Shown: positions 7,134 to 31,069, counted from the first letter of the stretch. The stretch: 64,000 nucleotides of DNA from Gammaproteobacteria bacterium (GCA_009845905.1 VXYS01000004.1:460548-524547); one strand, 5' to 3'. The notes: generated by a model not told the origin, from the letters alone. Made by a program: numbers and translations.

Positions 7134-7142
7134 CGCCAGCCC

Positions 7143-7247: not shown

Positions 7248-7260
7248 TAGCACGACGGGG

Positions 7261-9193: not shown

Positions 9194-9213
9194 GTTGCCT
9201 TCGTACCCGGCTT

Positions 9214-9232
9214 GCCAACGCGATGCGTTGGC
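9214..9232. promoter_or_regulatory. 8-3-8 palindrome in a divergent intergenic region (candidate operator)
   Basis: GCCAACGC-GAT-GCGTTGGC, located between the divergent monooxygenase (start 9193) and TonB-dependent receptor (start 9342). Confidence 0.3.
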
Positions 9233-9341
9233 TTTCAGGAATCTTCGGAAAAGCAGTCAACCGAAACCCTGCAAAGTCCTGTGATATAACCTGTTGCACA
9301 GGCAGCGTTCTGAACCATGCCAGTTCAGGAGGGGGGATCTC

Positions 9342-11798: not shown

Positions 11799-11879
11799 TG
11801 CCGGCCTTCTTGAGGGCCTGCGCGAGGCGATCTCCGGGAAGCAGGTCGCCTGAATCGACGAGCTGCCGCCGTTGACGCA

Positions 11880-13094
11880 TCAATCGATCCGTTCCGCCTT
11901 CTCCAGCGACCGCAACATCGAGCTTTCCATCAGGAAATCCGTCATCAGGCGGCGGTCGCTGGTCACGCGTTGCAGTTCGTCCCATACCTCGGCTCTTTCT
12001 TTCCTGCCCTTAACCCTGTGGCGCCGGTAGTTCCGGTCCGACCTGACCTGTACGTCATCGAGGGCGATTGAGCGGCGCTGCCGCGAATACCGGTCCAGCA
12101 ACGATTCGTCGGCGCCCTCCAGGATGATCGCGGCCAGCTTGTCGCAAAGGCTGCGCGCGTCGTGAATGCCGCTGTTCATTCCCAGTCCGCCCGAGGGACT
12201 GTTGAGATGGGCGGCATCGCCGGCCAGCACCATGCGCCCCGTCCGGAAGCTGTCGGCAATCCGCCGGTGAATGGTGTAGGCGCCCGTGTGAACGATCTCG
12301 TACGGACCCTCCTTCGGGTGGATTTCCTGCAGCCTGGCCTGGATCCGTTCCGGCTGCAACGCTTCCTCATGCGACTGTCCGGGTTTTGGCGAGAATCCGA
12401 CCCGCCAGACGTCCTTCAGCTGCATCATGCTGAAGTGACTGTCTTCGGTCCAGCAGTAATTGACGGACAACAAACCCTCGATGTGTTGGTCGAAGGGATA
12501 GCGAACCGCGACCGTCAGCGACGTAATCGGGTAGGTCTCGCCCCTGAAGTCCAGGCCCATGGCCTTGCGGACCCGGCTGCCCGCACCGTCCGCGCCGATG
12601 ACAAAGCCGCCCCGGACCGTTCGCGTGCCCGCCGGGCCTTCCACCTCGATTTCGACGCCATTTTCGTTCTGCGTCGCATCGATCACGCGAGCCCCGAACT
12701 CGAGATCGAACAGACGGTTGTCCCCGAGCCGTGAACAGATCGCGCGCGTCAGCCGGAACTGTTCGCACTGCAGCCTGTAGGGATGAGAGGTCCGGCCCCG
12801 AAGGACTTCCATATCGAACACGGCGCATGCACCCGTTACGTGATTGCGATATTGCCACTGCCTGCACTGGAGGCCATTCGCGAGCAAGTCCGCGACGACG
12901 TCGGCATCTTCAAGCACATCCAGCGTGCCAGGATGAAAGGTCGAGGCGCGCATGTCTTCGGGCAGTTCGCTCTCGGCCTCGAATACCGACACCGGGATGC
13001 CGCTGCGGATCAGGAACAGGGCGCAACTCAGCCCGACGGGGCCGGCGCCTGCAATCAGGACTCGATCGTCGTCCGCCGGGCCAACTCTGTTCAC
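11880..13094 (-). CDS. FAD-dependent aromatic-ring monooxygenase (paralog of 7994..9193)
   Basis: VLIAGAGPVGL Rossmann motif and VLAGDAAHLNSPSGGLGMNSGIHDA motif. Confidence 0.88.
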   Translation of the reverse strand: MNRVGPADDDRVLIAGAGPVGLSCALFLIRSGIPVSVFEAESELPEDMRASTFHPGTLDVLEDADVVADLLANGLQCRQWQYRNHVTGACAVFDMEVLRGRTSHPYRLQCEQFRLTRAICSRLGDNRLFDLEFGARVIDATQNENGVEIEVEGPAGTRTVRGGFVIGADGAGSRVRKAMGLDFRGETYPITSLTVAVRYPFDQHIEGLLSVNYCWTEDSHFSMMQLKDVWRVGFSPKPGQSHEEALQPERIQARLQEIHPKEGPYEIVHTGAYTIHRRIADSFRTGRMVLAGDAAHLNSPSGGLGMNSGIHDARSLCDKLAAIILEGADESLLDRYSRQRRSIALDDVQVRSDRNYRRHRVKGRKERAEVWDELQRVTSDRRLMTDFLMESSMLRSLEKAERID

Positions 13095-13124
13095 GCTATG
13101 CGACGCCGCTGTGACGAGCCTCGA

Positions 13125-14588
13125 TTATTCGGACTCCCCTGGCACCGGGATGCTGTCCAGAAGGCCGTCCACGACCGCGCCAAAGGCGCTCCAGGGCGCC
13201 TCCCGGAAACTGTGGTTGCGCACGATGAAGGACGGCCCGGCGAAAAAGTTCTCGTATTGCTGCTGGCGCGAGCCGAACTCGCTGCCGTACATGTCCCAGG
13301 CCAGGCGGTACAGCTTGACGCGGTCCACCGCGGTTTCATCCCCGGCCGCCCAGTAGTCCCTGAAGATGTCCCGGGTCGCCGGGTTTTCCAGCACCGAGAT
13401 GTCGGCGGGCATCTGGAACACGCTGCCGCCGGACAACTCCCGCATCATCGCGATGATCTCGGGGTAGTGCTCCTGGCACCAGTTGAGCGCCGCATACATG
13501 TAGCGCCGGTTGAAATTCACGAATCCGTTGCCGAGGTCTTCGCAGTCCTGTATCTGGCCCTGGATCATCCCGCCGAGGGCCGCTTCCCACGCTGCGAGTC
13601 TCCCGAGTTTTTCCGCCACGACGGGAATCCTGTCGACCCCGGCGGATTGCGTGATCTTGTGGATGATTCCGGCGATGAAACGCAGTTTTGCATGAAAACG
13701 CACATTGGACTGGTGATTGCCGAGCGTATGCGAGGCGGTCTGGACGTAAATCTCCCGCGAGAGCGCCGCGCGGTCGTGAACGAAAACGCGCTCCCAGGGC
13801 ACCCGCAGGTTATCGAAGATCAGCATCACGTCGCTTTCGTCAAAATTCGACGCGAGCGGACTGTCGAACTCCGTGGCCGCATAGAGCTCCATGGGCTTGC
13901 GTACCCACAGGGTCAGCCCCGCGGTATTCATCGGCACGGCGCAGGTTATGGCTTCCTTTTTCTTGTCATCGGAAATCGGCGTCAGGTTGCCGATCCAGAC
14001 TTCATCGCAGAAGACGCCCGCCGTGGCCAGCATCTTCATTCCGTTCAGGATGACGCCGTTGTCATCCTCGTCGACGACCTGCAGCACGGCCTGGTATCCC
14101 CTGGTGTCGCCGAAGATGTTTTCGTTCTTGGACTGGGGGGCCGGATGCACGGCATACGAGGCGTACAGGTCGTTCTTTCTGAGGTGCTCGTAGTAGTCGG
14201 TGATATGGCCCGAACAGGAATCGCCGTCCCGGTCCAGTATTTCCGGGTTCATCGCAAGGCCCGTCACGAAGCTGGCGACGTGATCGGGACTTCGGCCGAA
14301 AAGACCGTATGTCCGTTCGGCGATCGCGTAGTGCGCCCGCGAGCGCCTGACGAGGTCTTCACGGGTTCGGGGCATGAGGAAATAGGACGAGAATTCCTCG
14401 CCCTCCTCCTCGAACGACATCGGCTCGCCGTTGGCGGGATCGGCCTTGTGGTCGAACAGCCTGGCCAGCGTTTGCGCAGCGCCCCTGAAGGCCGGGTGTT
14501 CGACAACGTCTTTCACCTCCTCGCCGCCGATGTAGACCTTGCGCCCATCCTTCAATCCAGCCAGGAATTTCTTGCCGGTACGCAGCAT
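13125..14588 (-). CDS. 4-hydroxyphenylacetate 3-monooxygenase oxygenase-component family protein (HpaB-like, two-component flavin monooxygenase)
   Basis: 487 aa. N-terminus MLRTGKKFLAGLKDGRKVYIGGEEVKDVVEHPAF and overall length are typical of the HpaB/4-HPA hydroxylase family. Confidence 0.85.
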   Translation of the reverse strand: MLRTGKKFLAGLKDGRKVYIGGEEVKDVVEHPAFRGAAQTLARLFDHKADPANGEPMSFEEEGEEFSSYFLMPRTREDLVRRSRAHYAIAERTYGLFGRSPDHVASFVTGLAMNPEILDRDGDSCSGHITDYYEHLRKNDLYASYAVHPAPQSKNENIFGDTRGYQAVLQVVDEDDNGVILNGMKMLATAGVFCDEVWIGNLTPISDDKKKEAITCAVPMNTAGLTLWVRKPMELYAATEFDSPLASNFDESDVMLIFDNLRVPWERVFVHDRAALSREIYVQTASHTLGNHQSNVRFHAKLRFIAGIIHKITQSAGVDRIPVVAEKLGRLAAWEAALGGMIQGQIQDCEDLGNGFVNFNRRYMYAALNWCQEHYPEIIAMMRELSGGSVFQMPADISVLENPATRDIFRDYWAAGDETAVDRVKLYRLAWDMYGSEFGSRQQQYENFFAGPSFIVRNHSFREAPWSAFGAVVDGLLDSIPVPGESE

Positions 14589-14683
14589 CTTTCCGATTCA
14601 GCGGCGAAAGCTAAAATGAACGGTCAAATCCACGCCCGACCGTCGAACCGAATGGTTGCCTGCCGGACAAACAGGGGACGAGC

Positions 14684-15832
14684 ATGTTGATGAACAACTG
14701 GTACGTGGCTGCCAAGAGCCATGAAGTGAATGCGGAAAAGCCATTGATCGTGCGTATGTTAGGCCAGAATTTCGTACTCTTCCGCACTCCCGAAAACCAG
14801 GCCGTCTGTCTGACCAACACCTGCTGCCATCGCGGCGGTTCGATAGGCCGGGGTGAACTGGACGGCGCCGGACGTATCGCCTGCGGCTACCACGGCTGGA
14901 AATTCAATGCGCAGGGCCAGTGCGTCGAGATTCCCGCCCTGGGGGAAGACACCAACATCCCCAGGCGCGCACGGGTGGACTCGTATCCCGTCGAAGAGCA
15001 TTTCGACTGGGTCTGGGTTTTCCTGGGCGACCTGGAAGAGGAAAAGCGCCCGGCGATCCCGACGACCGTTTTCCCCGAGTACCACGACAAGGAAAACTGG
15101 CGAGTGGTTTCGATCGAGTTTGACGCCGATGTGAACTGGGCCCGCGGGCACGAGAACTCGCTCGACAGCGCGCATCCCGCATTTGTGCATTCGCGTTTCG
15201 GGCGGCGCAGCGCGCCGAAAGTGCAGATCGTCCCGCTGGTCGAAAACGACTTCGGGGGCCATAACGCCACTCGCGAACGCGTCCCGCCCAAGCACACGCA
15301 GGTGAGCGAGGATATCGCCAGGCTGGTTTCCAGAAAACGGGGCAATACGGTGGCCTCCACCGACTCCTACCTGGCGGGTATTTCGCACCGTATCGACATC
15401 ACCCGCGAGGGCAATATCCGGCAGGTCACGGTCTCCGCGCGCACGCCCGTCGATTCGTACAACACGCGGATCTTCATGCACCAGGCGCGCAACTACCTGA
15501 TGGAAGAGGAGCACGACGAGGCCCGCCTCGACGGCATCCGGCTGGCCTTCCGCGAGGACTATGAGGCAGTCGCTTCGGTCGAGCCGAAATTCGTGCCGCG
15601 CTCCATGGCGCACCAGCTGCTGGTCGAGTCCGATCAGCTCGAAACGGCGTTCCGGAAGGTGCTGTTCGATAAAGTGAAGCAGGGCTGGGAAATCGACGTC
15701 GAGAAACTGGAGCACGAAGGGCGCTACCGGCACTTCTCGATTCCGTCGCCGGCCCGCCGGGCCGACCCGAAGAACTGGGTCCACCCGGTTGTGCCTACGA
15801 CTTTCCCCCGCCAGGATCAGGCCAGCGAATAA
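14684..15832 (+). CDS. Rieske [2Fe-2S] aromatic-ring-hydroxylating oxygenase, alpha-only (VanA/phthalate-family-like)
   Basis: Rieske motif CCHRGG...CGYHGWKF and mononuclear iron motif ENSLDSAHPAFVH. No beta subunit or reductase gene is adjacent. Confidence 0.88.
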   Translation: MLMNNWYVAAKSHEVNAEKPLIVRMLGQNFVLFRTPENQAVCLTNTCCHRGGSIGRGELDGAGRIACGYHGWKFNAQGQCVEIPALGEDTNIPRRARVDSYPVEEHFDWVWVFLGDLEEEKRPAIPTTVFPEYHDKENWRVVSIEFDADVNWARGHENSLDSAHPAFVHSRFGRRSAPKVQIVPLVENDFGGHNATRERVPPKHTQVSEDIARLVSRKRGNTVASTDSYLAGISHRIDITREGNIRQVTVSARTPVDSYNTRIFMHQARNYLMEEEHDEARLDGIRLAFREDYEAVASVEPKFVPRSMAHQLLVESDQLETAFRKVLFDKVKQGWEIDVEKLEHEGRYRHFSIPSPARRADPKNWVHPVVPTTFPRQDQASE

Positions 15833-15847
15833 GCCGGCAGCGAATCC

Positions 15848-16954
15848 TCAGTAGTCGTACCAGAAATTTTGCCAGGCCGCCCGCGGGTGCAGATAATCCG
15901 CGGCTTCGCGTGCGTTGTCCGGCTGATACCCGGTCCAGAGATTGGGCTGATAGCGCTCTTCATACTGGTCGAAGACGTGCCGGTACATGCTGATGTGAAA
16001 ATCGGGAATCCGATGGCGCTCGCGATAGGCCGCCATGTCGATCACGGCGCGGCGGCGGGTCTCGAAGGGGCCGGCCTGGGCAAGCACCTCGCCCTTCGGC
16101 CCGAATATCGAAGACCGCCCCACCCAATCGTTGCGCGGCGCGTTCTCGACGAAAAACTCTTTGTTCTCGTAGCCGATATTCAGTGAATTGTTCACGACCA
16201 CCGTGAAGACGTCGTGATGGTAGGAGCACATCTGCGTGTCCTCCCAGCGGAACCCGCCGGTGGCGGGCCGCACCAGGATTTCCGCGCCTTTCAGCGCCTG
16301 CGCCCGGAACAGTTCGGGTTCGTACTGGACCGGCGACATCGCGATGTTGCCGATGTCGGTCCGGGCTACGGGAATCACCGCGTCCCAGCCGTACATCTCG
16401 ACGAAACGGTCGAAAACGTCGTAGATGCAGGTCGTGATCTGCTCGCTGTGCCGGAACGTTCCGCGCTTGGCGCGCTGCTTCCAGTGCCTGGCCACGATAT
16501 TGCTATCCGGCCCCACCAGGATCTGCATGTTCATCACGTGGCCCGGCCAGTCCTCGTCCTTGATCAGGCAGCCGAAAGCGATGTAGCAGTCGTATTGCTT
16601 CGCCTTCAGCGCAATCTCCTCGATTTCCCTGCATTCCGTATAACGCGCCACCCTCAGGTACTGCTCGCGGTTCTTCCTGCCTCCTCCCTGAAGGGGGAAC
16701 TCGTGAAAACACACGAGGTCGGCCCGGCCCTTGCCCTGCGCCTTGTCGATCGCGTTGAGCGTGTAATCGAGGTTGTCCCGGATCAGCGGTTCCGGATCGT
16801 CCGGGTCAACCGGCCGAGTGCGCGTCTGCACGATATTGATGGACACCTTGTCGCGGCGCAGGTCAACGGTCGGATAGGTGCCGTCCTTGCGCACCATCGT
16901 AGGTACGGGAATGTCGTGTCGGGTTGTCATGGCGAAGCTCTCCGTTTGCGGCAT
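15848..16954 (-). CDS. carbon-nitrogen hydrolase (nitrilase/amidase superfamily) protein, atypical
   Basis: Amidase-like layout with LVCFHEFPLQG (Glu), RHWKQR (Lys) and TDIGNIAMSPVQYEPE...LKGAEILVRPA. An alternative start ATG 16930 has a better GGAGA RBS. Confidence 0.7.
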   Translation of the reverse strand: MPQTESFAMTTRHDIPVPTMVRKDGTYPTVDLRRDKVSINIVQTRTRPVDPDDPEPLIRDNLDYTLNAIDKAQGKGRADLVCFHEFPLQGGGRKNREQYLRVARYTECREIEEIALKAKQYDCYIAFGCLIKDEDWPGHVMNMQILVGPDSNIVARHWKQRAKRGTFRHSEQITTCIYDVFDRFVEMYGWDAVIPVARTDIGNIAMSPVQYEPELFRAQALKGAEILVRPATGGFRWEDTQMCSYHHDVFTVVVNNSLNIGYENKEFFVENAPRNDWVGRSSIFGPKGEVLAQAGPFETRRRAVIDMAAYRERHRIPDFHISMYRHVFDQYEERYQPNLWTGYQPDNAREAADYLHPRAAWQNFWYDY

Positions 16955-20398: not shown

Positions 20399-20998
20399 TT
20401 AGTAAACGTTTTGTCCGCCGTCGTCGAGGACTTCCGGGCGCTTCCAGTAGGAATATTGAGGGGTCCAGTCCTGCGCGTTCATGCCGGCCAGGGCGAGGAG
20501 GCTCCAGAGCGAGCAGTAGAGGTCGCCGGGTCCGAAGACGCAGGCGTTGAAGCGGAGAACCTTGTCCCCTTCGCGCTTGTAGACGACCGCACCGGGGTAG
20601 TTGTCCTGGCCGTCCACGACCGACTGCTCTCGAATATAGGCGCCGCCGCCGTGCGAGGCGAGCCTGAAGCGCCAGCCGCGCTCGTTGGCGAACCGCCGCT
20701 GCAGTTCCGGCGGATCCTTGGACAGCAGAACGACGGACATGGCGTTTTCCAGGTGCGGGAGAAAGCCGTTGAAACCGTCGGCCCAGACGGTGCAGTAGCG
20801 ACACCCCTGGCCCATGTTGTGGATCGCCAGCAGCGTGTCCCTGCCGGCGAACAGTTCAAGCAGACTCACCTCGCCCGACCCGTCGGCGAAGCGGTAGTCG
20901 GGCACCTCGGCGCCACGGCTCTGTTTCAGAAGCGTCCCGAGTTCCCCCGTAAGCTCGAAGATCTGCTGCTGAATTTCGGCAATGCGTTTTGTGGTCAT
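20399..20998 (-). CDS. DUF899 thioredoxin-like family protein
   Basis: About 199 aa from ATG 20998 (GAAGGAA RBS). Contains GQGCRYCTVWADGFNGFLPHLE and SHGG motifs typical of DUF899. Confidence 0.7.
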   Translation of the reverse strand: MTTKRIAEIQQQIFELTGELGTLLKQSRGAEVPDYRFADGSGEVSLLELFAGRDTLLAIHNMGQGCRYCTVWADGFNGFLPHLENAMSVVLLSKDPPELQRRFANERGWRFRLASHGGGAYIREQSVVDGQDNYPGAVVYKREGDKVLRFNACVFGPGDLYCSLWSLLALAGMNAQDWTPQYSYWKRPEVLDDGGQNVY

Positions 20999-21037
20999 CC
21001 GGATTCCTTCATCGCGTGCCGCCGGCACATCGTCATA

Positions 21038-21772
21038 TTACAAACCCAGCACGCGGTAGTCGCCGTTGACGATGAGAGCTGCGGAGACGTACACACCAAG
21101 CAGCGCGCACAGGATCCAGAAGGAATTGATCGCCACGATGTAGATGTACATGTCGCGCCGGCTCAGCAGCTTGTGCCGTCTCGCCACGAAAAAGCTGACC
21201 AGGTAAGTCGAGGTCATATAGACCCATTGCCAGGACAGCATCAGCCCGATGATCCCGGCCACCAGAGCGGAAGGGTAACCGACCGTGAATGCCGCATACA
21301 GCACCAGTGTCGGAACAAGCGTGACGAAACCGTTGGCGATGTCCACGTTGAAGCCGAAGGTGCGGCGGTCGGCATACGAGTCGTCGTAATAACAGTAGGC
21401 TGCCCAGGCATCGGCCCAGACGGCCGGCGACAGGACCAGTGTCAGCCTGATCCTTGCGGCGAAGAAACCGTGCGCTGGCGAGCGTCCCGTCCTGTGCTGC
21501 ATTTCGCGCCAGTATTCGGCGCGCGATCCGATCCTGTCGCGCAGGAAAAACAGGCAGATCTCCCAGTAGCAGATCAGGAGATTGACCGAAAAGAACAGGC
21601 AGAACAGAGAGTGAAGAAAATTCACCTCCCCGCTGGTCCGCCAGCGCACCAGGATGCCGAGGAGTGTGCCGCCTGCGACGACCAGAACAACGACCAGCGC
21701 CACCGGCACCGTCAGCCCCTTGCTTCCCCGGCCCTGTTCGGATGGCGGCAGGCTGGCGCGGCTGTCGGACAT
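21038..21772 (-). CDS. EXPERA-domain membrane protein (EBP/TMEM97-like), candidate sterol Delta8-Delta7 isomerase
   Basis: 244 aa with 4-5 hydrophobic segments. WAAYCYYDDSYADRRTFGFNVDIANGFVTLVP aligns by eye with human EBP [31 protein letters not shown]. INSFW aligns with the EBP MNALW (N193/W196) motif. Confidence 0.55.
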   Translation of the reverse strand: MSDSRASLPPSEQGRGSKGLTVPVALVVVLVVAGGTLLGILVRWRTSGEVNFLHSLFCLFFSVNLLICYWEICLFFLRDRIGSRAEYWREMQHRTGRSPAHGFFAARIRLTLVLSPAVWADAWAAYCYYDDSYADRRTFGFNVDIANGFVTLVPTLVLYAAFTVGYPSALVAGIIGLMLSWQWVYMTSTYLVSFFVARRHKLLSRRDMYIYIVAINSFWILCALLGVYVSAALIVNGDYRVLGL

Positions 21773-21825
21773 GTGCCCCCCTCACACTATCCACTGTGGC
21801 GGCGAGCGCATTCTAACTTGCCGCG

Positions 21826-21856
21826 TTGCGACGAAACGGGTCGCACACGATACAAT
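21826..21856 (+). promoter_or_regulatory. candidate promoter/operator for the sterol methyltransferase gene
   Basis: TTGCGA (21826..21831), a 19-nt spacer, then TACAAT (21851..21856). Palindrome TGCGAC-N7-GTCGCA (21827..21845) overlaps the -35 element and spacer. The spacer is longer than optimal. Confidence 0.3.
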
Positions 21857-21895
21857 CCCGCTCGTTACCTGCCGGCATATCGGGAGGCGCGGGGG

Positions 21896-22915
21896 ATGGA
21901 TGCGAAAGTAGCCAAACGTTCCCTTGGGAATCTGACCCAGGGGGAAGTGAAGTCGGTGGTCGATGACTACGTCGGGCTCCACGATGCCGGCGTTGAGCGC
22001 AAGAAGGAGCATTACCGGCAGCTCGTCAACAACTACTACGACCTCGTGACCGATTTCTACGAGTGGGGTTGGGGCAAGAGCTTCCACTTCGCTCCGCGGC
22101 GACGGGGCGAGAACTTCAAGGCATCACAGATCCGGCACCAGCATTTCCTGGCCGACAAGCTCTCGCTGAAACCGGGAATGCAGATTCTCGACGCGGGATG
22201 CGGTGTGGGCGGACCCATGGGCAATCTGGCCCGCTTTAGCGGCGCGAGTTTTGTCGGCGTCAACAACAACGCCTACCAGATCGAGCGCGCGAAAGTGCAC
22301 ACCCGGGACGTTGAGGCGCTGTGCCGTTTCATCAAGAGCGACTACATGAAGATTCCCCGGAGCGACGACCACTACGATGGCGCCATAAGCATCGAAGCGA
22401 TGCCCCACGCGCCGGACAAGACCGCCGCGTACGGCGAGATCTTCCGTCTTTTGCGTCCCGGGGCCGGTTTCGCGTGCTACGAGTGGTGTGTCACCGACGT
22501 TTTCGATCCTTCGAACACGGAACATCTGCGGATCAAGGAAGGAATCATGACGGGGTCGGCGCTACCCGACATCGCCGGCACGACAGAAGTGTGCGAAGCC
22601 GTGCGCGCGGCCGGGTTCGAGCTGCTCGAAGCCCGGGACCTTGCGCCCGATTCGGATCCGGAAACGCCCTGGTACCGGGCTTTGCAGGGCCGGGACTTCA
22701 CTCTGGCGAGCATCCCGCGCACGCCCTTGGGCCGCGCCCTGACCAATCTGATCCTGCGAATTGCGGAGCCGTTGCGACTCGCTCCGCAAGGCGCGCGGGA
22801 GGTCAGCACGTTCCTGAACTGGGGCGCGGACACGCTCGTTGAAGGCGGCCGGACCGGCATCTTTACGCCGATGTACTTTTTCCTGGCCCGCAAACCCCTG
22901 TCCGGGGGAGACTGA
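21896..22915 (+). CDS. sterol C-24 methyltransferase (ERG6/SMT1 family)
   Basis: 339 aa from ATG 21896 (GGGAGG RBS 8 nt upstream). Contains YYDLVTDFYEWGWGKSFHF (SMT region I), the SAM site LDAGCGVGGP, IEAMPHAP and YEWCVTD. The first 495 codons of track ORF 20411.. are antisense to other genes and are rejected. Confidence 0.85.
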   Translation: MDAKVAKRSLGNLTQGEVKSVVDDYVGLHDAGVERKKEHYRQLVNNYYDLVTDFYEWGWGKSFHFAPRRRGENFKASQIRHQHFLADKLSLKPGMQILDAGCGVGGPMGNLARFSGASFVGVNNNAYQIERAKVHTRDVEALCRFIKSDYMKIPRSDDHYDGAISIEAMPHAPDKTAAYGEIFRLLRPGAGFACYEWCVTDVFDPSNTEHLRIKEGIMTGSALPDIAGTTEVCEAVRAAGFELLEARDLAPDSDPETPWYRALQGRDFTLASIPRTPLGRALTNLILRIAEPLRLAPQGAREVSTFLNWGADTLVEGGRTGIFTPMYFFLARKPLSGGD

Positions 22916-22917
22916 CC

Positions 22918-25900
22918 TCACGCGGCGCGCGGCCTGATCCGAACCGCGTCCGGCTCCTTCTCCTTCGAAGCGGCGGTCAGTTCGAGTCGGGTCCGGCGGC
23001 GTTGCTCGTACAGGCCGAGCGCGCGCAGCGGGAAATACTGTCGGTACAGGACGTAGTCCAGCAGCGCCGTGCGGAAGAAGACGCCGGCCATGTCCTGTTT
23101 CGGCCAGCCGCCATCCGCTTCCTGGGCGTTGAGCAGAAAACGTGCGCCGCGCGCAATCGCGGTCCAGTTGGACTCATCTGCCTCCAGCAGCGCTAGCAGG
23201 GCCCAGGCGGTCTGGATGACCTGGCTTTCCTCGTGCGCAACATAGCGGCCCGTCAGGCAACCGCTGTGGTGTTCGCCCCATCCGCCGTCATCGCGCTGCC
23301 GGTCGAGCAGCCAGCGGCAGGCCAGGCGCAGCGCCGGATCGCTCGGTCCCGCCCCGGCGGCAACCAGGCCCCTGATGCCGAACAGGGTCCCGTAGATGTA
23401 CTGAACGCCCCACACGCCACGCCATGAGCCATCGCGCTCCTGGGTCTTGCGCAGCCAGGCGGCGCCCCTTGCGATGGCCCGCGCCGCCGGCGGATCAAGT
23501 GCCTGCGGGAACCGGCGCCCGCAGGCGGCCAGCGCCTCCAGACAGGACCCCGTGCACTCGACGTAGGAATTTTCGGTCATCGATTCGCCGAACATCTCGG
23601 CGGGGTTCAGCCACTCGAGACCGATCCGCGAGCGTCGTGCTTCATAGCTGCCGAAGCCGCCATCGCGGTTCTGGCTTCGCAACATGAACCGGACCGCCTC
23701 ATTCAGCGCCGCCTTGTCCGCGTCATCACCTCCTGCGGCGAGTATCCCGAGCACGGCTTCGGCGGTGCAGTCGCTCACCGGCCAGCCATGCCAGCCGCCG
23801 GGAAAACACCAGCCTCCCTTCGGGTCGGCGCGAAAGGCCTCGCGATACCCGTCGAAGCTGGTGCGGATCTGTTGTGAGCGCAGGAAGCCGGCGCCCTTGC
23901 GGACAGCGTCGTTAATTTCATCGGACCCGGGCGCGTCCGCGAGCGCCTGCACGGAAAAGGCGGTGTCCCAGGTGCTGCTTCTGGCTCCGGTGACCCGCGC
24001 GCCGAGCTCCTCGTCTTCCCAGAACCACCCATCGAGCCCGGCGAGCGCCGTACGGCAGTCGGCATCGTCCCGATCGTGCAGCCACAAGGCCAGAATGTTC
24101 AGAAAACCGCTGACCGGCGAGATGCTGCTGTGACTCGTGGTCTGCAACTCCCACTGGATCTGGCGGACCAGCTTCTCAAGGCAGCGGCGGCGCAGGCGCT
24201 TGCTGTGGATTCGTTCATACAGGCGCGCCAACGCGTATCCGGCTCGCAACCACACGCTCGGTCGCACAAACAGGTCGGCGTCGCGCAGGCGGTTGCGGGC
24301 GGAAGAAAAATCAAGGCGGTCAAACTCTTTTCCGAACAATTCTTCGCGCAGGGATTCGATCACGGGCGTGACCGGCGCCTGGAACCGATGCGCGTAGATG
24401 GACGCCATCGCCATGTAAATGAGCCGCGTATGGCAGTACCAGTTCGACGGATGCAACGGCAACCCGCGCGGCAGCTTCCACAGTTCCGGAAGAATTGCGT
24501 TCACCCCGCGCCAGTCATACAGATTGAGCAGCGCCAGCCAGAATTTCCCCCAGCTCGGGACCGCAAGCACGTCCTCTTCGGCGAGGAAACGGCCGGCCGG
24601 TGCGACAAGCGGGTCGTCAGGCTCCACGCCGAGCAGTCTCGACGCGACATAAACCAGCACGGTCACGAACAGGTGGGGCGGCGAGTGCTCGTGCAATCCC
24701 CACGCGCCGTCCGCCAGGCGGGTGCATTCGAACGAGCGCAGGATGCGCCGCCGCCGGCCGGAGTCTATCGGCTCACCGAGAATGTGCTGCAGCAGCACGT
24801 ATTGCGCCGTGAGCATGGGGCACCAGACCATCTCGCCTTCCCAGGCGCCGTCCTCGCCCTGAAGGTCCAGAAGGCGCGCCGCTGCCCTGCGCAATGCAGG
24901 CTCCGCGTCGGGCGACGCGGATTCGCCCGTCCGCGGGGCGCCGGCTCGGCCGTCGTTCGAGGACATGGAAGCGAGAAGCGCGCGCGACAACGCCCTGCGG
25001 GCCTCCCGGTCCTTGCCGCCGCCTCCGTCCCTGGCCTCCTTCAGCTTGCGAATGCCACGCAAGAACCAGCGGGCGCGGGCAACGAGCGGGAAAACGATGT
25101 AGCGTGCCCGCCGCCAGGCCAACTGTCTGAATGATGAACGAACCACGCCCGCAACGGCCCGGATCACCGTAGCTAGCGTTGCGAGCACAAGGTGGGTCAT
25201 CGAGGTTTCCTCGCAGGCGAGCAGCCGCATGGTCCGGTCGCGAACGACGCCATGCGCCCGCCAGTTGCGGTAGATCGCGCGCCGGAGCGCTGCCGCTTCG
25301 AGTCGATGATCGGCAAAGACCTCGTACAGCCCCATGGCGAGCAGCTCCGGGGCGCGGGTCGCCCTGAATCGCCGGACGGCGAAATTCCTGAAGCTCCCGC
25401 CTTCCGCCAGCGCGGCGGCGTCGCCGAAACCGAGCGTCATGCCCACCGCCGTCATCGGATGATAGTGCCCGGCCGCATCGCCGATCAGCACCCGCCTCGA
25501 CGTGCCGTACGAGACGCGCGGCCTGAGTTCATTGGCCGCCGCGTGGAATTTGCCCGACTTCAGCGCCGAGAGATAAGCGGGTCGCAATGCTTCCGGCAGG
25601 ACCCGAGCGTAAGACTCGGCCAGCAGGCCGGTCCTGTCGCGCGAGGTCCATTGCTCAAGCGGCACATCGACAACGATCCTGACGCAATGCTCGCCCAGCG
25701 GATATCCGAGAATCGGACCCGGGCCGCCGAGCATCACGTATCCGTAACCGGCCGGCTGCAGACTCACGCCTTCAAGGGTCACGCCCACCATCCGCGAGCA
25801 GGCCTTGCGCCGCATCGGCAGGCCCAGCGACCGCCGCACGGCGGAAGACCGGCCGTCGGCGCCGACAATCCTGTCGGCGGCGAGGTGTTCGCTGGAGCCG

Positions 25901-26394
25901 CCGCGGGTGAAGACCACGCCGTCGTCTTCGACCTGCCTTACCCGCGCATTGACAAGAAAGTCGATGCCCGGCTCATTGCGGACGGCTTCATGCAGACGCG
26001 CCACGAGGACCTCATGGTCGCAGGCTATACCCCGCCCCCCGCCGGGGTACGGGAGCACGATCGGTTCCGAACCGTCCTCCGGAAACACCACGAAGCCCTG
26101 ACCCTCGGTGCTGCGCAGCGGTGGATCGAGGCGGATGCCGGCATCGCGCAACATGCGCACGGCCAGCGGATGCAACCACTCGCCGGCCAGCCGCGTGGCC
26201 GCCCTGGGGTTCGCCTCAAGCAACGCCACGCGCGCGCCCTTGCGCGCGTGAGCGAGCGCGCAATAGCTGCCGACAGGCCCCGCGCCTACGATGATTACGT
26301 CGTAACGCGGGGAGGCGGCGCTCAACTGAATACGCTCGCTTGCGAGCGGCGGCGATAGCGGACCCGGCACGGTACCGTGGGGCCCGTCACCCAA
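22918..26394 (-). CDS. fusion protein: squalene monooxygenase (epoxidase) N-terminal domain + oxidosqualene cyclase C-terminal domain
   Basis: Single uninterrupted 1158-codon ORF. N-terminal part: YDVIIVGAGPVG, LAGEWLHP, IGDAAGHYHPMTAVGMT (squalene-epoxidase-like). C-terminal part: GWPVSDCTAEAV (OSC catalytic Asp motif), YVECTGSCLEAL and QW-type repeats RDGGFGSY, DDGGWGEH, ADGGWPKQ. There is no ATG at the 5' end, so the start is TTG 26394, GTG 26370 or TTG 26325. Confidence 0.85.
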   Translation of the reverse strand: MGDGPHGTVPGPLSPPLASERIQLSAASPRYDVIIVGAGPVGSYCALAHARKGARVALLEANPRAATRLAGEWLHPLAVRMLRDAGIRLDPPLRSTEGQGFVVFPEDGSEPIVLPYPGGGRGIACDHEVLVARLHEAVRNEPGIDFLVNARVRQVEDDGVVFTRGGSSEHLAADRIVGADGRSSAVRRSLGLPMRRKACSRMVGVTLEGVSLQPAGYGYVMLGGPGPILGYPLGEHCVRIVVDVPLEQWTSRDRTGLLAESYARVLPEALRPAYLSALKSGKFHAAANELRPRVSYGTSRRVLIGDAAGHYHPMTAVGMTLGFGDAAALAEGGSFRNFAVRRFRATRAPELLAMGLYEVFADHRLEAAALRRAIYRNWRAHGVVRDRTMRLLACEETSMTHLVLATLATVIRAVAGVVRSSFRQLAWRRARYIVFPLVARARWFLRGIRKLKEARDGGGGKDREARRALSRALLASMSSNDGRAGAPRTGESASPDAEPALRRAAARLLDLQGEDGAWEGEMVWCPMLTAQYVLLQHILGEPIDSGRRRRILRSFECTRLADGAWGLHEHSPPHLFVTVLVYVASRLLGVEPDDPLVAPAGRFLAEEDVLAVPSWGKFWLALLNLYDWRGVNAILPELWKLPRGLPLHPSNWYCHTRLIYMAMASIYAHRFQAPVTPVIESLREELFGKEFDRLDFSSARNRLRDADLFVRPSVWLRAGYALARLYERIHSKRLRRRCLEKLVRQIQWELQTTSHSSISPVSGFLNILALWLHDRDDADCRTALAGLDGWFWEDEELGARVTGARSSTWDTAFSVQALADAPGSDEINDAVRKGAGFLRSQQIRTSFDGYREAFRADPKGGWCFPGGWHGWPVSDCTAEAVLGILAAGGDDADKAALNEAVRFMLRSQNRDGGFGSYEARRSRIGLEWLNPAEMFGESMTENSYVECTGSCLEALAACGRRFPQALDPPAARAIARGAAWLRKTQERDGSWRGVWGVQYIYGTLFGIRGLVAAGAGPSDPALRLACRWLLDRQRDDGGWGEHHSGCLTGRYVAHEESQVIQTAWALLALLEADESNWTAIARGARFLLNAQEADGGWPKQDMAGVFFRTALLDYVLYRQYFPLRALGLYEQRRRTRLELTAASKEKEPDAVRIRPRAA

Positions 26395-27731
26395 CTGCCG
26401 TAATTCGGCGCGGGAAAATCCGCAACGGGATCAAAATCGAAGCGGTCCAGCAGCACCGCCCAGATCGCCTTCAGTTGCAGCATGGCGAATTTCTCCCCCA
26501 TGCAACGGTGCTTGCCCCCGCCGAAGCCGATCAGCGTGTAGAGGTGCTGCTTGTTCTCGCTGCGCGGCGGAGCGAACCGTTCGGGATCGAATCGCTCGGG
26601 ATCGGCGAACAGGCCCGGCAAACGGTGCGAGACCGCCGGAGACACGACGGCCAGGGCGCCGGCGGGCACCGTGTGGCCCGCATACTGCAGAGGCCGGAGC
26701 ACCTTGCGGATCAGCAGTATCAGCGGCGGGTGCAGCCGCTCGCATTCGCGCACCGTGTATTCCAGCGCCACCTGCCGCTTCAGTCCGTCGAGGCTCATGG
26801 CCCCCGCCTCACCGTAAATCTCGCGCATCTCGGCGCGAATCCGCGCCACGCAGGCGGGATCGCGGAACATCTCAAGACCCATCCAGCTTGCGAGCACCGC
26901 GCTGGTGTGCTGGCCGGCGAACAGGACCGTCAGCAGTATCCCGGTCACCTCGTCGTCGCTCAGGGTCCGGCCGTCCTTGTAGCGGGACTGCATCAGCGCC
27001 TGCATGAAATCTTCCGGCGCGGCGCCCGAACCCCGCCGGCCCTCCATGATTCGGACAAGAATCCCGGCTATCCTGCGGCGCGCGCGGTCGCGACGCCGAT
27101 GCGCCGGGATCGGCAGCCTGGGCAGGAAGAAGCCGATCAGGTTTATGCCCTCCTCGAGGTCGTGGTACGCCTGGGCGAATCCCGAATCCACCTGATCCCG
27201 TACCTCCTGACCCAGCAGGCAGCGGCTGGCGATGTTCACGGTAAGCCGGTTCATCGCCGCCGGCAGGTCCAGCGTTCCTTCCTCTCCGAGCGCGTCGGCA
27301 AACCGGGCGGCCTCCTCATACATGATTTGCGCGTACCTGCGCATGGACGCATCGCGCAGCGCCGGATACAGGAACCCCAACTGCTCCGCCATGATCTCGG
27401 GGGCCACGTCGTAGGCCACGCCGCGCCCGAAGATAGGCACCGTGAACTGATAGACGGCACGGGCGTCAAGCTGGTCCTCGGGCGCGCGGAAGTAGCAGTC
27501 GTGGGCTTCCGGCCCGGTGAACAGCACGAATTCGCGGGTCCCCAGCCGGAAACGGACCAGTTCGCCGTGCTCACGCCAGCCGCGATCGAGCATCGCCACC
27601 GGGTCCCTCTGGAACTCGGGCAGATGACCGAGCAACGGCCAACCGCCGGAGAGTTCGGGAATCGGCTTGCCCGGCGGCGCCGCGGGCCGCGCCGAACGCA
27701 GGGTGGCTGCACTGTCGGTATGGTTCGGCAC
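26322..27731 (-). CDS. cyp51: cytochrome P450 sterol 14-alpha-demethylase (CYP51)
   Basis: Heme loop FGGGKHRCMGEKFA. Also PELSGGWPLLGHLPEFQRDP, VYQFTVPIFGRGVAYD and FAGQHTS, which match the CYP51 pattern I recall from Mycobacterium CYP51. Start GTG 27731 has a GAGGA RBS 5 nt upstream. Track ORF start 27794 would overlap the reductase gene. Confidence 0.85.
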   Translation of the reverse strand: MPNHTDSAATLRSARPAAPPGKPIPELSGGWPLLGHLPEFQRDPVAMLDRGWREHGELVRFRLGTREFVLFTGPEAHDCYFRAPEDQLDARAVYQFTVPIFGRGVAYDVAPEIMAEQLGFLYPALRDASMRRYAQIMYEEAARFADALGEEGTLDLPAAMNRLTVNIASRCLLGQEVRDQVDSGFAQAYHDLEEGINLIGFFLPRLPIPAHRRRDRARRRIAGILVRIMEGRRGSGAAPEDFMQALMQSRYKDGRTLSDDEVTGILLTVLFAGQHTSAVLASWMGLEMFRDPACVARIRAEMREIYGEAGAMSLDGLKRQVALEYTVRECERLHPPLILLIRKVLRPLQYAGHTVPAGALAVVSPAVSHRLPGLFADPERFDPERFAPPRSENKQHLYTLIGFGGGKHRCMGEKFAMLQLKAIWAVLLDRFDFDPVADFPAPNYGSWVTGPTVPCRVRYRRRSQASVFS

Positions 27732-27739
27732 GTCTGTCC

Positions 27740-28837
27740 TCAATACACGAACGGGACCATCGAATACGGCACTCGCTCCCTGTAGCGCCCCCACAGTTCG
27801 CCGTACTTGGCGCGGCAGCGCCGCTCATCGCGGCGCGAGCGATGCCACAGCAGCCCCGCAAGCCAGGCCGGCAACACATACGGCGCCCAGGATGCAAAAC
27901 CGGTGGTGAGCGCAAACGCGAGGTACATACAGATCTCGCCGCTGTAGTTGAGATGCCGCCCGATTCCCCAGAACCCGGACACCAGCAGGCGCCCGTCGAG
28001 GGACTCGGCGGGCCGGCCCCAGATTCTGATTGCAGGGTTGCGCTTGAAGCGATGCTTCTGCGCGTTGGCGCCCCGGAACACCCAGAAGCCGAAGGCATAC
28101 AGCAGCACGATGCCGGCTGCGGCGAGGGGGCCCAGCGGCGGACCGGATGCGTCAACCAGCCACCAGCCGACGATGCAGTAGAAGAAGGGCACAAACACGT
28201 AGTCGCCCCACACCAGCATCCATCCGAAGCGCTCGCTGATGATGTCCCAGGTGTGGACCATGCCCCTTTCGAACTGGAAGTAATTGAGCACGTACACCCA
28301 CGTCAGGACCTGGTAGAGGGCCATCGCCAGCGTCAGATAGCCGTAGGTTTCGTATTGCACTACGGCGAACGACGTATTGAACAACGCCAGCCCGATGAGC
28401 GAGGGGCGGTAGCTGAACATCTTGAGGTCCACCCCGAGCAGGGCAGGATTGAGTTCCGCACCGAAGAAGAAACCCCGCCAGAACCCCGGCGATTCGGCAG
28501 GCTTCCGCGCGCTTCGCCAGTACAGCCAGCCGGAAAACGCGAATGCGAACACGTTCGCCGCCACGAAGAGCGCGAAAAAGTGCGTATACAGCAACGACAG
28601 TGAGAACGCGCCGGAGACCTGGGCGATGCCTGCCGCAAGGACGGTGAGCAGCAAAAGCGCCAGACCGTTGATCTTGTAGGTGATTGACTTGCCGCCGAGA
28701 TCCGGCCCCCTGATCCGGCGACCCGGCACGAGTATCGATCCCAGAAACAGTGCGCCGATAAAGACGGCGATCATTACCGCCGCCTGGAGCAGCAGCGCGC
28801 CCGAAAGCGCAAACGCAGTCGCCGGCAGCTCAGGCAT
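27740..28837 (-). CDS. ERG4/ERG24-family sterol reductase (probable C-14 reductase)
   Basis: 365 aa, multi-TM. Family-defining C-terminus LLVSGFWGIGRHLNYSGEI...RDERRCRAKYGELWGRYRERVPYSMVPFVY. Confidence 0.85.
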   Translation of the reverse strand: MPELPATAFALSGALLLQAAVMIAVFIGALFLGSILVPGRRIRGPDLGGKSITYKINGLALLLLTVLAAGIAQVSGAFSLSLLYTHFFALFVAANVFAFAFSGWLYWRSARKPAESPGFWRGFFFGAELNPALLGVDLKMFSYRPSLIGLALFNTSFAVVQYETYGYLTLAMALYQVLTWVYVLNYFQFERGMVHTWDIISERFGWMLVWGDYVFVPFFYCIVGWWLVDASGPPLGPLAAAGIVLLYAFGFWVFRGANAQKHRFKRNPAIRIWGRPAESLDGRLLVSGFWGIGRHLNYSGEICMYLAFALTTGFASWAPYVLPAWLAGLLWHRSRRDERRCRAKYGELWGRYRERVPYSMVPFVY

Positions 28838-29960
28838 CGGCGCCGCCGTCCGCGGTCGTCATCCCGGGCGCGGGCATCGCCGTGCCGTTCTCCCTGGCCA
28901 GGTACTCCTGCCACTTGCGCACGGTCACGTTCTGGAAAGCCCGCACCGCCGGGTTGAACTCCAGGGGGCGGGCGTTGAAGTGCCGCTCGTAACCCTCCTG
29001 TTCGGCTTCGAGCGCAAATCCGTCCTGGGAAAGCAGCGGACCGATGAGCACACGGTTGGAGATCTTGAGGACCGTGGTCATTGCAAGCCTGGGGAAGCGG
29101 ATCGGCAGCAACGGAACCTTCAGGGACTTGAAGTAGAACAGGAAGAAGGCCCGGCTGGTGCGTTCGTCGACGGGCAGCACGAAACACCAGTGCTTTATCG
29201 CGTCGTCGGTGTTCGACCACTGGTAGGGATACTGATAGCAGAGCTTCATCGAATTGGTATCGATCCGCTCGCGATCGACGAACATTCCGGAAAAACGCCC
29301 GCGGCCGACGCTGGTGTCGTAGGCCACGTGCACGTCGTCGCCGACCGTCTCGCAGCGCGTGAGCACGGCGCCGTCGAAGGGGCGATAGCGGCGGTGCAGC
29401 CAGGCGTGAGTGAAATCGCTGACGTTGTCGATCACCATCGAGTGGTGCGCCGACCAGGTGAAACTCAGCGGCACGCAGGCCCAGCGGCCCTTGCCCTCCA
29501 GCTCGGGAATATCGGGAATCCGGCGCGATTGAGCCCGTTCCGGGTTCCCTGGGAACAGCCAGATCAGGCCGTAGCGGACCTTTACCGGATAGGTCCTGAG
29601 CGCGACATTCGGCATGCTTCCCCCAAGCATCTCGTGCGCGGTCTCGGCAAGCCGTCCGTCCGGGTCGTATTTCCAGCCGTGGTAGGCGCACACCAGCCGG
29701 CAGCCTTCCACCTGGCCCAGCGACAGCTTGAGCTGGCGATGGGCGCAGCGGTTGTCCATGGCGTGAAACGAACCGTCCTCGGCCCGGAACAGCGCGATCG
29801 AACGCTTCCAGAAAATCACCTCGACCACGCTCCCGGGCTTGATTTTGCGCACTTCCTCGACCGCGTACCAGTAGTCCGGGTCCATGCCCGCCGCGCGCAC
29901 CTTCTGGCGCAGGTTGACGGCCTCCTCGAAGCCCGGCGGTCCTGCCGTCACCGTGTTCAT
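28830..29960 (-). CDS. sdmA: Rieske-type oxygenase, SdmA-like (bacterial sterol C-4 demethylation)
   Basis: Rieske motif CAHRQ...CAYHGWKY and iron motif DNVSDFTHAWLH. Assigned as SdmA by its position between an SdmB-like reductase and the sterol reductase/CYP51/OSC genes. Confidence 0.7.
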   Translation of the reverse strand: MNTVTAGPPGFEEAVNLRQKVRAAGMDPDYWYAVEEVRKIKPGSVVEVIFWKRSIALFRAEDGSFHAMDNRCAHRQLKLSLGQVEGCRLVCAYHGWKYDPDGRLAETAHEMLGGSMPNVALRTYPVKVRYGLIWLFPGNPERAQSRRIPDIPELEGKGRWACVPLSFTWSAHHSMVIDNVSDFTHAWLHRRYRPFDGAVLTRCETVGDDVHVAYDTSVGRGRFSGMFVDRERIDTNSMKLCYQYPYQWSNTDDAIKHWCFVLPVDERTSRAFFLFYFKSLKVPLLPIRFPRLAMTTVLKISNRVLIGPLLSQDGFALEAEQEGYERHFNARPLEFNPAVRAFQNVTVRKWQEYLARENGTAMPAPGMTTADGGADA

Positions 29961-31069
29961 GATGCGCCCCCATCGGCAGTTACCTGCGTACTCCGGTCCG
30001 GCACGGCGTTTTCCTCGTGTACCGCACCGTTCGCGCGCGGGCGTTTGGCCTGCGGATTGGTGATCGCCTTGCGCTCGTGATAGTGAAACGCGTACGCCTC
30101 ATGCACGGCGTCGCGGATGCGGGTCGGCCGGTAGCCGAGTTCGCTTTTCGCCTTGCCGAGATTGGCGTGACGGCGCTTTTTCAGAAGGCGGATGGCGCCG
30201 GGCGTGAAACGCTGGGGAAAGTCGGGGTGCACGCGGCTCAGGTAGAAGCTCGCCGCCTCCGAGAAGACATACATCAGGTTGGCCGGAATCCGCCGGCGCG
30301 GACGCGGGATGCCCGTAACCTCCTCGTAGAGATCAAGCATGCCGGAGATGGTCTTGTATTCGCTGCTGAAGATGTACTTCTCGCCCGGGCGTCCGTTGCG
30401 CATGCACAGCAGGTGACCTTCGACGATGTCGCGCGCCGCCACGAACTCGAACCCGCCGTCCACGTAGGCATGGAGCTTGCCGTCGGTGAAGTCGCACAGG
30501 GTCCGGCCCAGGCGCGACGGGAAAAAGTCCGCGCCGCCCACGACCGCACAGCAGGTTGCGACAACGACGTCCTGCCCTGCCGACGCCGCGCGCCAGCACT
30601 CGTGCTCGACGAGCATCTTGCTGCGCTCGTACGGCATCGTGCGCTCCATGGGGTAGAACTGCATGGTCTCGTCGCTTGGAGCGGACGGATCGTCGAGATC
30701 GTAGCCAACCGCGCTGAACGAGCCCGTGACCACTACCCGCCCGGCTTCGTACTCCCGCGCCGCCTGCAGCACGTTGCGGGTGCCCAGCACGTTGCACTCA
30801 TACAACTCGCGGCGATGCGCGCGAGTGCCGTCGATGGTGGAGACTTTCGCGGCGACGTGATAGACGCCCTGGCAACCCTCGATCGCGCGCCGGGTGGCGT
30901 TCAGGTCCCGGATATCGCCGTAAGCGCGTTCAACATCGAGGCCTTCCAGGCCCTCGTTGTTGTCCTCGTGCCTCAGCAGCACACGGATGCGAACGCCGTC
31001 GTCGAGCAGGCGGCGCACAAGATTGGCGCCCACGTGTCCGGCCGCGCCGGTTACGAATACGGGATTCAT
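29957..31069 (-). CDS. sdmB: NAD(P)-dependent epimerase/dehydratase-family reductase, SdmB-like (bacterial sterol C-4 demethylation)
   Basis: N-terminus MNPVFVTGAAGHVGANLVRRLL, an extended-SDR Rossmann fold. ATGA overlap with the Rieske gene. Assignment rests on operon context. Confidence 0.7.
   Translation of the reverse strand: MNPVFVTGAAGHVGANLVRRLLDDGVRIRVLLRHEDNNEGLEGLDVERAYGDIRDLNATRRAIEGCQGVYHVAAKVSTIDGTRAHRRELYECNVLGTRNVLQAAREYEAGRVVVTGSFSAVGYDLDDPSAPSDETMQFYPMERTMPYERSKMLVEHECWRAASAGQDVVVATCCAVVGGADFFPSRLGRTLCDFTDGKLHAYVDGGFEFVAARDIVEGHLLCMRNGRPGEKYIFSSEYKTISGMLDLYEEVTGIPRPRRRIPANLMYVFSEAASFYLSRVHPDFPQRFTPGAIRLLKKRRHANLGKAKSELGYRPTRIRDAVHEAYAFHYHERKAITNPQAKRPRANGAVHEENAVPDRSTQVTADGGAS

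Follow-up and report, generated by a model that had tools for sequence, protein, structure and literature searches.

The bacterial sterol C-24 methyltransferase (SMT) described here is encoded on the plus strand, at 21896..22915, of a 64,000-nucleotide stretch of DNA from a Gammaproteobacteria bacterium (GCA_009845905.1 VXYS01000004.1:460548-524547), the whole of which is referred to below as the window. The gene very likely specifies a functional S-adenosylmethionine (SAM)-dependent SMT of an uncultured gammaproteobacterial sponge symbiont, embedded in a sterol gene cluster of about 10 kb and performing one or perhaps two methylations. In the mechanism proposed, a minus-strand run of five genes (sdmB, sdmA, a C-14 reductase, CYP51, and a fused squalene epoxidase/oxidosqualene cyclase) would make and trim a tetracyclic sterol, and the SMT, transcribed alone from the opposite strand, would methylate the side-chain delta-24 double bond of a sterol intermediate. 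The products would be 24-methylene/24-methyl sterols, possibly also 24-ethyl sterols. Catalytic activity, the substrate used in the cell, and how many methyl groups are added are all predictions from sequence.

By family, the 339-residue product is a sterol C-24 methyltransferase, as judged from its motifs, domains, and closest matches. An earlier note on this DNA had proposed the same ERG6/SMT-type assignment and quoted several motifs, all of which were located in the translation. Region I, the sterol-binding segment, reads YYDLVTDFYEWGWGKSFHF (residues 47-65, at 22034..22090) and satisfies the consensus Y-E-x-G-W-G-x-x-F-H-F with YEWGWGKSFHF at residues 55-65; Tyr55 (22058-22060) and Trp57 (22064-22066) in this segment correspond to yeast positions 81 and 83. 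Region II is the SAM-binding loop LDAGCGVGGP (pattern DxGxGxxGP; residues 98-107, at 22187..22216), in which D99, G101, G103, G106, and P107 align with yeast ERG6 125-133. The further motifs IEAMPHAP and YEWCVTD are found at residues 166-173 and 195-201. A Sterol_MT_C domain (PF08498) covers residues 275-334 (22718..22897) and scores 79.8 bits in Pfam against a gathering cut-off of 21.7, and the class I methyltransferase core is matched by Methyltransf_11/25/31. Compared with yeast ERG6 (sequence confirmed as NP_013706.1 by exact look-up), the protein is 42% identical over 310 residues (255 bits, E 4e-87). Brown and Welander have listed 25 residues common to every SMT shown to be active (2025 preprint, 10.64898/2025.12.19.695621). 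All 25 are kept in the window SMT when it is aligned (MAFFT L-INS-i) alongside ERG6 plus 14 homologs from bacteria.

The open reading frame (ORF) is a real gene on sequence criteria, because it has 3745 homologs at E<=1e-20 and a codon composition with a GC content of 0.79 at third positions (GC3) against 0.45 at second positions (GC2). It begins with the ATG at 21896 and ends with the TGA at 22913-22915. An ORF call leaves the same frame mechanically open up to 20411, which would give a protein of 834 residues, but several features support the start at 21896 instead: the homologs are 337-351 residues long, a GGGAGG lies upstream, four close relatives have GTG at the same codon, and the span 5' of 21896 is filled by two conserved minus-strand genes. 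The GGGAGG (21882..21887), a putative ribosome-binding site, stands 8 nt 5' of the start, and GGAGG is kept before the SMT in four of the related loci introduced below (L001, L002, L006, and L035).

Gene clusters of this type, with a fused squalene monooxygenase/oxidosqualene cyclase (SMO/OSC) beside the SMT, have already been published together with enzyme assays, a precedent that the earlier note overlooked. In that work, 24 metagenomic bacterial SMTs were expressed, of which 20 were active and three gave a 24-isopropyl side chain, and the surrounding clusters were described (Brown, Olagunju, Giner, Welander, Nat Commun 2023, PMC10070321). A contig from the sponge Aplysina aerophoba carries, in order, the SMT (gene 11), ERG1 and ERG7 as one gene (12), ERG11 (13), ERG24 (14), sdmA (15), and sdmB (16) (PMC10070321, Supplementary Data 1). 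The identical order is found in a Chromatiales metagenome-assembled genome (MAG) associated with Theonella swinhoei (genes 2690455922-5927), and "fused SMO/OSC homologs" are named in the Methods of the same paper. The statement in the earlier note that bacterial SMTs come mainly from uncultured sources agrees with this work. The A. aerophoba SMT JGIcombinedJ30088_10000835 "1 of 2" (gene 11, J30088_1000083511) is a propylating enzyme that carried out three methylations in vitro (PMC10070321). A sequence for it was taken from codon-optimized DNA in the preprint supplement (10.64898/2025.12.19.695621), damaged by optical character recognition (OCR), and compared by frameshift-tolerant protein-to-DNA alignment; 217 of 323 aligned codons were identical to the window SMT, an approximate identity of about 67%. 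Identity to the propylating enzyme of Chlamydiae is about 45%. By position and, as far as this alignment goes, by sequence, the window SMT is the ortholog of an enzyme with demonstrated activity.

The cluster is also widespread. A scan of one genome per species returned 64 loci with relatives, all of them in MAGs and many of these bearing sponge-bin names. Synteny is common to more than 20 of the loci, spread over Gamma- and Alphaproteobacteria, Chloroflexota, Rhodothermales, Binatia, and others, and the same cluster order recurs in L001, L002, L005, L006, L035, and many more. The closest loci belong to Gammaproteobacteria MAGs, closed chromosomes among them, and sponge-metagenome runs contain 98-99% of the sampled words of the region. 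Typical bacterial transport and catabolic genes flank the cluster.

The window itself follows the published order across 21896-31069, with the SMT alone on the plus strand and five operon-like sterol genes on the minus strand. The gene facing the SMT, at 22918..26394, encodes a fused squalene epoxidase and oxidosqualene cyclase (SE-OSC) of up to 1158 residues; its start is uncertain and may be TTG 26394, GTG 26370, or TTG 26325. The earlier note had called this neighbor a cyclase, and both the convergent arrangement and the oxidosqualene cyclase domain bear this out; the product is, however, a fusion with squalene epoxidase and not a plain cyclase. The epoxidase occupies residues of about 31-417 and the cyclase about 500-1130, with Pfam matches to SE, FAD_binding_3, SQHop_cyclase_N, and SQHop_cyclase_C. 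On TIGR03463 (oxidosqualene cyclase) the protein reaches 746.6 bits, under the 851-bit cut-off, and on TIGR01787 (squalene/oxidosqualene cyclases) 509.6 bits, above the cut-off of 322.7. The match to human lanosterol synthase (1w6k) has an E value of 1e-134, and the catalytic VSDCTAE is kept. The residues at human T381/C449/V453, three positions commonly used to separate lanosterol from cycloartenol synthases, are Ala/His/Val. This mixed signature is neither cleanly lanosterol nor cleanly cycloartenol, and the substrate series of the SMT is therefore uncertain.

The remaining minus-strand genes would carry the later steps. A CYP51 sterol 14-alpha-demethylase (26322..27794; Pfam p450), whose 5' end overlaps the next gene and whose start is uncertain, has the Methylococcus capsulatus CYP51 (6mcw) as its best solved relative, with an E value of 7.8e-110. 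It is followed by a sterol C-14 reductase of the ERG4/ERG24 family (27740..28837; Pfam ERG4_ERG24, 248 bits), which matches the Delta(14)-sterol reductase MaSR1 (4quv) with an E value of 7.5e-66. The last two genes are the positional equivalents of published sdmA and sdmB homologs, whose products belong to bacterial C-4 demethylation: an SdmA-type Rieske oxygenase (28830..29960; Pfam Rieske and VanA_C) and an SdmB-type NAD(P)-dependent 3-beta-hydroxysteroid dehydrogenase/epimerase (29957..31069; Pfam Epimerase and 3Beta_HSD). Gene ends overlap by 4 bp at 29957-29960 and by 8 bp at 28830-28837. At the 5' ends of CYP51 and SE-OSC the nominal overlaps are 55 and 73 bp, and the true starts are therefore probably the downstream alternatives (GTG 27731 for CYP51; GTG 26370 or TTG 26325 for SE-OSC). 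Pfam scans of the main predicted genes of the 64 kb turned up neither a squalene synthase nor a second SMT nor a DHCR24-type reductase. The "full upstream pathway" of the earlier note thus holds in so far as a sterol cluster is linked to the SMT; it does not hold in its extent, since squalene synthase was not found, the first step covered by the cluster is squalene epoxidation, and the majority of its genes work later than cyclization or alongside the SMT rather than ahead of it.

How many methyl groups an SMT adds can be related to a small number of residues. Mutagenesis has shown that Gly at yeast position 249 is needed, though not sufficient, for C30 (24-isopropyl) products, and that Phe at 81 and 83 increases C30 yield (10.64898/2025.12.19.695621). 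In the same preprint all 11 of 11 substitutions of Gly249 abolished C30, with G249A/S/N/T retaining C29; for instance, the G249S mutant of a Chlamydiae SMT kept C28 and C29 and lost C30. The window SMT has Ser221 (22556..22558) at position 249, as placed by alignment both to ERG6 and to the A. aerophoba propylating SMT, along with Tyr55 at 81 and Trp57 at 83, so that neither the Gly249 on which propylating SMTs depend nor a Phe at 81 and/or 83 is present. The propylating ortholog is Phe/Phe/Gly at these positions, and the local motifs compare as DFFEFGWG and IMVGGGLPDI in the ortholog versus DFYEWGWG and IMTGSALPDI in the window. Because it is without Gly249 and without Phe81/Phe83, the window SMT is predicted to add one, possibly two, carbons and to form no 24-isopropyl product. 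Gly249 occurs in none of the 120 best homologs, among which the Tyr/Trp/Ser combination is shared only by the window protein and the 12 relatives nearest to it; this Tyr81/Trp83/Ser249 subclade may have a product spectrum of its own. An AlphaFold model of the SMT was considered for the geometry of residue 249 and Region I and was not used, its mean predicted local distance difference test score (pLDDT) being 60.6; the model was poor outside the Rossmann core and fell under 50 in both Region I and the C-terminal domain.

Several points weigh against a functional SMT of one or two methylations. As far as could be established, published assays include no member of the Tyr81/Trp83/Ser249 subclade, which is made up of the 12 nearest among 120 homologs. 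Of the 34 bacterial SMT homologs assayed, about 10-11 showed no activity with desmosterol or 24-methylenecholesterol, and four of these retain every conserved residue (10.64898/2025.12.19.695621). The residue-249 rule derives from mutants of two enzymes, and Trp at 83 lies outside the mutants made. The product-determining residues of the cyclase are mixed, as described above, and a squalene synthase was not found among the main predicted genes of the window. The SMT homolog could, then, be inactive or act on another substrate, such as an intermediate still in its 4-methyl or 4,4-dimethyl form, or a sterol supplied by the host. The failure of roughly one third of the homologs tested in vitro, conserved residues notwithstanding in four cases, gives this some weight, as does a subclade whose activity is only predicted, from sequence. 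It is nevertheless unlikely, given that all 25 conserved residues are present, that MAGs show strong purifying conservation (80-91% identity with synteny kept), and that the positional ortholog from A. aerophoba is active.

A propylating enzyme, making 24-isopropyl sterols as that ortholog does, would fit the identical cluster position and the identity of about 67%. It is very improbable all the same, as C30 formation needs Gly249 and was lost in every substitution made there, whereas the window protein has Ser at this position and no Phe at 81 or 83. Scarcely credible is a non-sterol class I methyltransferase (one for cyclopropane fatty acids, tocopherol, or ubiquinone) or contamination with eukaryotic (sponge) DNA, a reading effectively refuted by the tests run. 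Public records do label the protein just "class I SAM-dependent methyltransferase", and generic methyltransferase models in Pfam match it. The top sequence match in the PDB is even a non-sterol enzyme, MitM, at 67 bits (E 1.5e-17 over about 117 residues). By match scores, however, no non-sterol methyltransferase comes as near to the protein as do verified SMTs (255 bits for ERG6, and an identity of about 67% with a bacterial SMT that has been assayed). All NCBIfam models of non-sterol methyltransferases (cyclopropane-fatty-acid, ubiquinone, and others) fall far under their cut-offs, the cyclopropane fatty-acid synthase model reaching 49.9 bits against 400. With Sterol_MT_C, Region I, and the 25 SMT residues in place, the non-sterol candidate was ruled out, and the grouping with cyclopropane-fatty-acid or tocopherol-type enzymes that the earlier note had set against its own assignment did not appear in these score comparisons. 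Contamination is contradicted by the bacterial surroundings, which include a TonB receptor, ABC transporters, and overlapping operon genes, and by the presence of the same locus on closed bacterial MAG chromosomes. A functional SMT that alkylates the side chain once or perhaps twice therefore stays the favored reading.

The SMT and SE-OSC genes meet tail to tail at TGAcctca (22913..22920, both strands). The SE-OSC stop lies at 22918-22920 (tca on the plus strand, TGA on the minus strand), and the two stops are 2 bp apart (CC, 22916-22917), exactly as the earlier note had it. No terminator-like hairpin was found near 22900 in a terminator scan, and RNA folds of the junction in 60- and 120-nt windows on either strand were no stabler than shuffles (z = 0.13 to 1.81). 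These two analyses sustain the claim that no terminator separates the stops, and they also ruled out a bidirectional terminator hidden in both coding 3' ends. Some overlap of the SMT and cyclase transcripts is likely from this layout. A search restricted to RNA libraries found no runs covering the locus; the only candidate runs consist of fragmented, undirected contigs from mixed strains, with an unspecified library type.

Overlapping transcripts raise the question of whether the junction is a selected regulatory feature, in which the SMT and cyclase-operon transcripts would engage in antisense pairing or polymerase collision. In addition to the missing hairpin, it could be argued that the 2-bp spacer is retained in L001, L002, L005, L006, and L035, down to 80% SMT identity and even where the cyclase stop has changed from TGA to TAG, and that the convergent layout is retained in many phyla. 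Set against this is the packing of the window as a whole. An ORF map of our own gave 11 convergent pairs, with gaps of 127, 81, 15, 472, 2, 362, 26, -11, 325, 373, and 11 bp, so that 5 of the 11 are no more than 26 bp apart or overlap; the other tight pairs are at 40605-40615 (11-bp overlap), 15832/15848 (15 bp), 35521/35548 (26 bp), and 53006/53018 (11 bp). Tight 3'-end packing is a general trait of the source genome. Outside the close clade the spacing of the same convergent pair is variable: gaps fall into three ranges (1-3, 27-35, and 75-133 bp), and some pairs overlap instead, by about 50 bp (overall -53 to +133). The SMT and cyclase genes are co-directional at myxobacterial loci, and in a Nitrospira sponge symbiont it is the gene of a 244-residue membrane protein, not the SMT, that meets the 3' end of the cyclase gene, the two sharing 22 bp. 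Rho commonly ends untranslated antisense read-through, a further consideration against regulation by overlap. The arrangement is thus neither unusual for the window nor conserved beyond the close clade, and a regulatory role is doubtful; the 2-bp junction is best read as the ordinary gene packing of a compact genome. How the gap came to be so short may be seen in the cyclase itself. Matches to it reach residue 1158 in the close clade and in L014 but end near 1134-1154 at all other loci, and its last 17-20 or so residues are specific to the close clade. Because of this distribution, the sequences suggest that the gap was closed by a lineage-specific C-terminal extension of the cyclase.

On its other side the SMT is separated by a divergent intergenic region of 123 bp (21773..21895) from a minus-strand gene (21038..21772) for a 244-residue polytopic membrane protein of an unannotated family. 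The spacer is nearly invariant beside the start of the membrane-protein gene, including the near-palindrome CCACTGTGG (21791-21799), and a conserved TACAAT (21851-21856) is found about 40 nt 5' of the SMT start. A scan for consensus promoters gave no complete sigma-70 match in the spacer. By their position and conservation, TACAAT and CCACTGTGG may be shared promoter or operator elements. Beyond the membrane-protein gene, 9 bp from its 3' end and on the same strand, lies a gene for a DUF899/thioredoxin-like protein (20399-21028); its position is kept in L006 (93% identity), and its homolog is about 1 kb further off in L001 and L035.

The 244-residue protein is probably a remote member of the EXPERA superfamily, to which EBP belongs, as fold and profile comparisons suggest. 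It has no match among Pfam, NCBIfam, or PDB sequences, and the EBP/EXPERA model PF05241 does not match it even at E<=10. Its 431 homologs are all "hypothetical"; in a set of 1.84 billion representatives, the family makes up 332 clusters when grouped at 50% identity. An AlphaFold model of modest quality (pLDDT 73, predicted TM-score (pTM) 0.66) gave human EBP as its top Foldseek match (probability 1.00, TM 0.48/0.54, E 0.036, 219 columns), with all remaining matches at TM<0.25. PF05241 scored below threshold in 4 of 10 divergent relatives (10.7-14.7 bits against a cut-off of 25.7), and a family profile gave no significant match when compared with human EBP as a lone sequence (E 0.11). When 50 diverse members were aligned with 25 vertebrate EBPs in hhalign, a probability of 66% and an E value of 5.6e-5 were obtained over 112 columns. 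Eight positions are invariant in both families and identical between them (W123/W101, Y126/Y104, D130/D108, Y133/Y111, Y185/Y160, Y190/Y165, N216/N193, and W219/W196), and D144, invariant in the 244-residue family, aligns with EBP E122. W101, Y104, Y111, E122, N193, and W196 of EBP are functionally important (PMC6549186). The proton-relay residues His76 and Glu80 of EBP fall outside the aligned region, and the 244-residue family has an invariant N64 and E71 in that helix.

This protein is a candidate sterol isomerase, and its association with the SMT is only partial. Its gene adjoins the SMT in 14 of the 64 SMT-anchored loci, in two orientations, and is also found within the Nitrospira cluster and on a Petrosia contig with an assayed SMT. 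None of the 22 sponge-metagenome homologs with adequate flanks has an SMT nearby, which rules the protein out as a general SMT partner. It is conceivable, and we put it forward tentatively, that in the window the SMT and the 244-residue protein form a working pair, the latter being a highly diverged bacterial sterol delta8-delta7 isomerase of the EBP/EXPERA type, or else a related sterol enzyme that handles carbocations, which every annotation pipeline has missed. If so, sponge symbionts would have a way of making delta-7, 24-alkylated sterols.

Other surroundings of these genes can be recorded here. The Nitrospira sponge-symbiont contigs (L065-L067, at 1123-16735) hold a larger sterol cluster, with two SMTs separated by an amine-oxidase-like flavoprotein, a GPP34-P450 fusion, and the 244-residue protein gene overlapping the 3' end of SE-OSC by 22 bp. 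Sediment and marine contigs (L109-L146) carry distant homologs of the 244-residue protein (33-37% identity) in conserved surroundings: an FAD/NAD-binding oxidoreductase lies at a distance of 6 bp, an extradiol-dioxygenase-like protein, alpha/beta hydrolases, a GMC oxidoreductase, and another membrane protein are also encoded, and a CYP51-like P450 (40-43% identity) is found 3.5-6.6 kb from the homolog. This neighborhood may be a steroid-modifying or steroid-degrading cluster, perhaps a catabolic one. Within the window, an oxygenase cluster at 7994-15832, by its position unrelated to the sterol genes, consists of FAD_binding_3 monooxygenases (7994-9193 and 11880-13094), a TonB-dependent receptor (9294-11798), an HpaB-type hydroxylase (13125-14588), and a second Rieske/VanA_C oxygenase (14684-15832) with the same domain pair as SdmA.

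Steranes with an alkylated side chain are interpreted as fossils of eukaryotes, and 24-isopropylcholestane as a fossil of sponges. Bacterial SMTs weaken this reading, a point made and tested experimentally in 2023, and the window adds a further complete example, in a gammaproteobacterial symbiont. The enzyme class and the gene layout were described and assayed at that time; what is new here is the prediction that the window lineage does not propylate and the EBP-like neighbor of the SMT. The former helps to narrow down the symbionts able to contribute the 24-isopropyl biomarker. The latter, whose gene lies within some of these clusters, is a candidate missing enzyme and, if confirmed, would close a gap in bacterial sterol biosynthesis.

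Among known systems, the A. aerophoba SMT is like the window enzyme in its sponge-symbiont origin and in its slot beside the fused SMO/OSC, followed by ERG11, ERG24, sdmA, and sdmB. The two differ in that the A. aerophoba enzyme has Phe81/Phe83/Gly249 and yields C28, C29, and C30 sterols, whereas the window has Tyr81/Trp83/Ser249, and in that the A. aerophoba contig holds a second SMT. The Theonella swinhoei Chromatiales cluster, likewise from a gammaproteobacterial sponge symbiont and in the same order from SMT to sdmB, has an SMT 41.6% identical to ERG6, compared with 42% for the window SMT; it differs in having a DHCR24 homolog two genes from the SMT, where Pfam scans of the window found none. 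The Chromatiales SMT is listed among the active enzymes, and the cluster-linked SMTs of Chromatiales, Petrosia, and Sarcotragus apparently stand at the end of the single-methylation group, the boundaries of the labels being OCR-uncertain (10.64898/2025.12.19.695621). Human EBP (3-beta-hydroxysteroid delta8,delta7-isomerase; PDB 6oht/8w0r) is the sole meaningful fold match of the 244-residue protein, which has counterparts of W101, Y104, Y111, E122 (as Asp), N193, and W196; the 244-residue protein, however, is below the Pfam threshold, counterparts of His76/Glu80 are unaligned, and most members of its family lie away from sterol genes. Yeast ERG6 shares Regions I-IV, Sterol_MT_C, and the 25 conserved residues with the window SMT, but it has Tyr83 and Asp249, adds a single carbon to zymosterol, and carries an N-terminal extension about 26 residues longer. 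It is, moreover, a eukaryotic protein associated with the endoplasmic reticulum, whereas the window SMT is part of an operon-like bacterial cluster.

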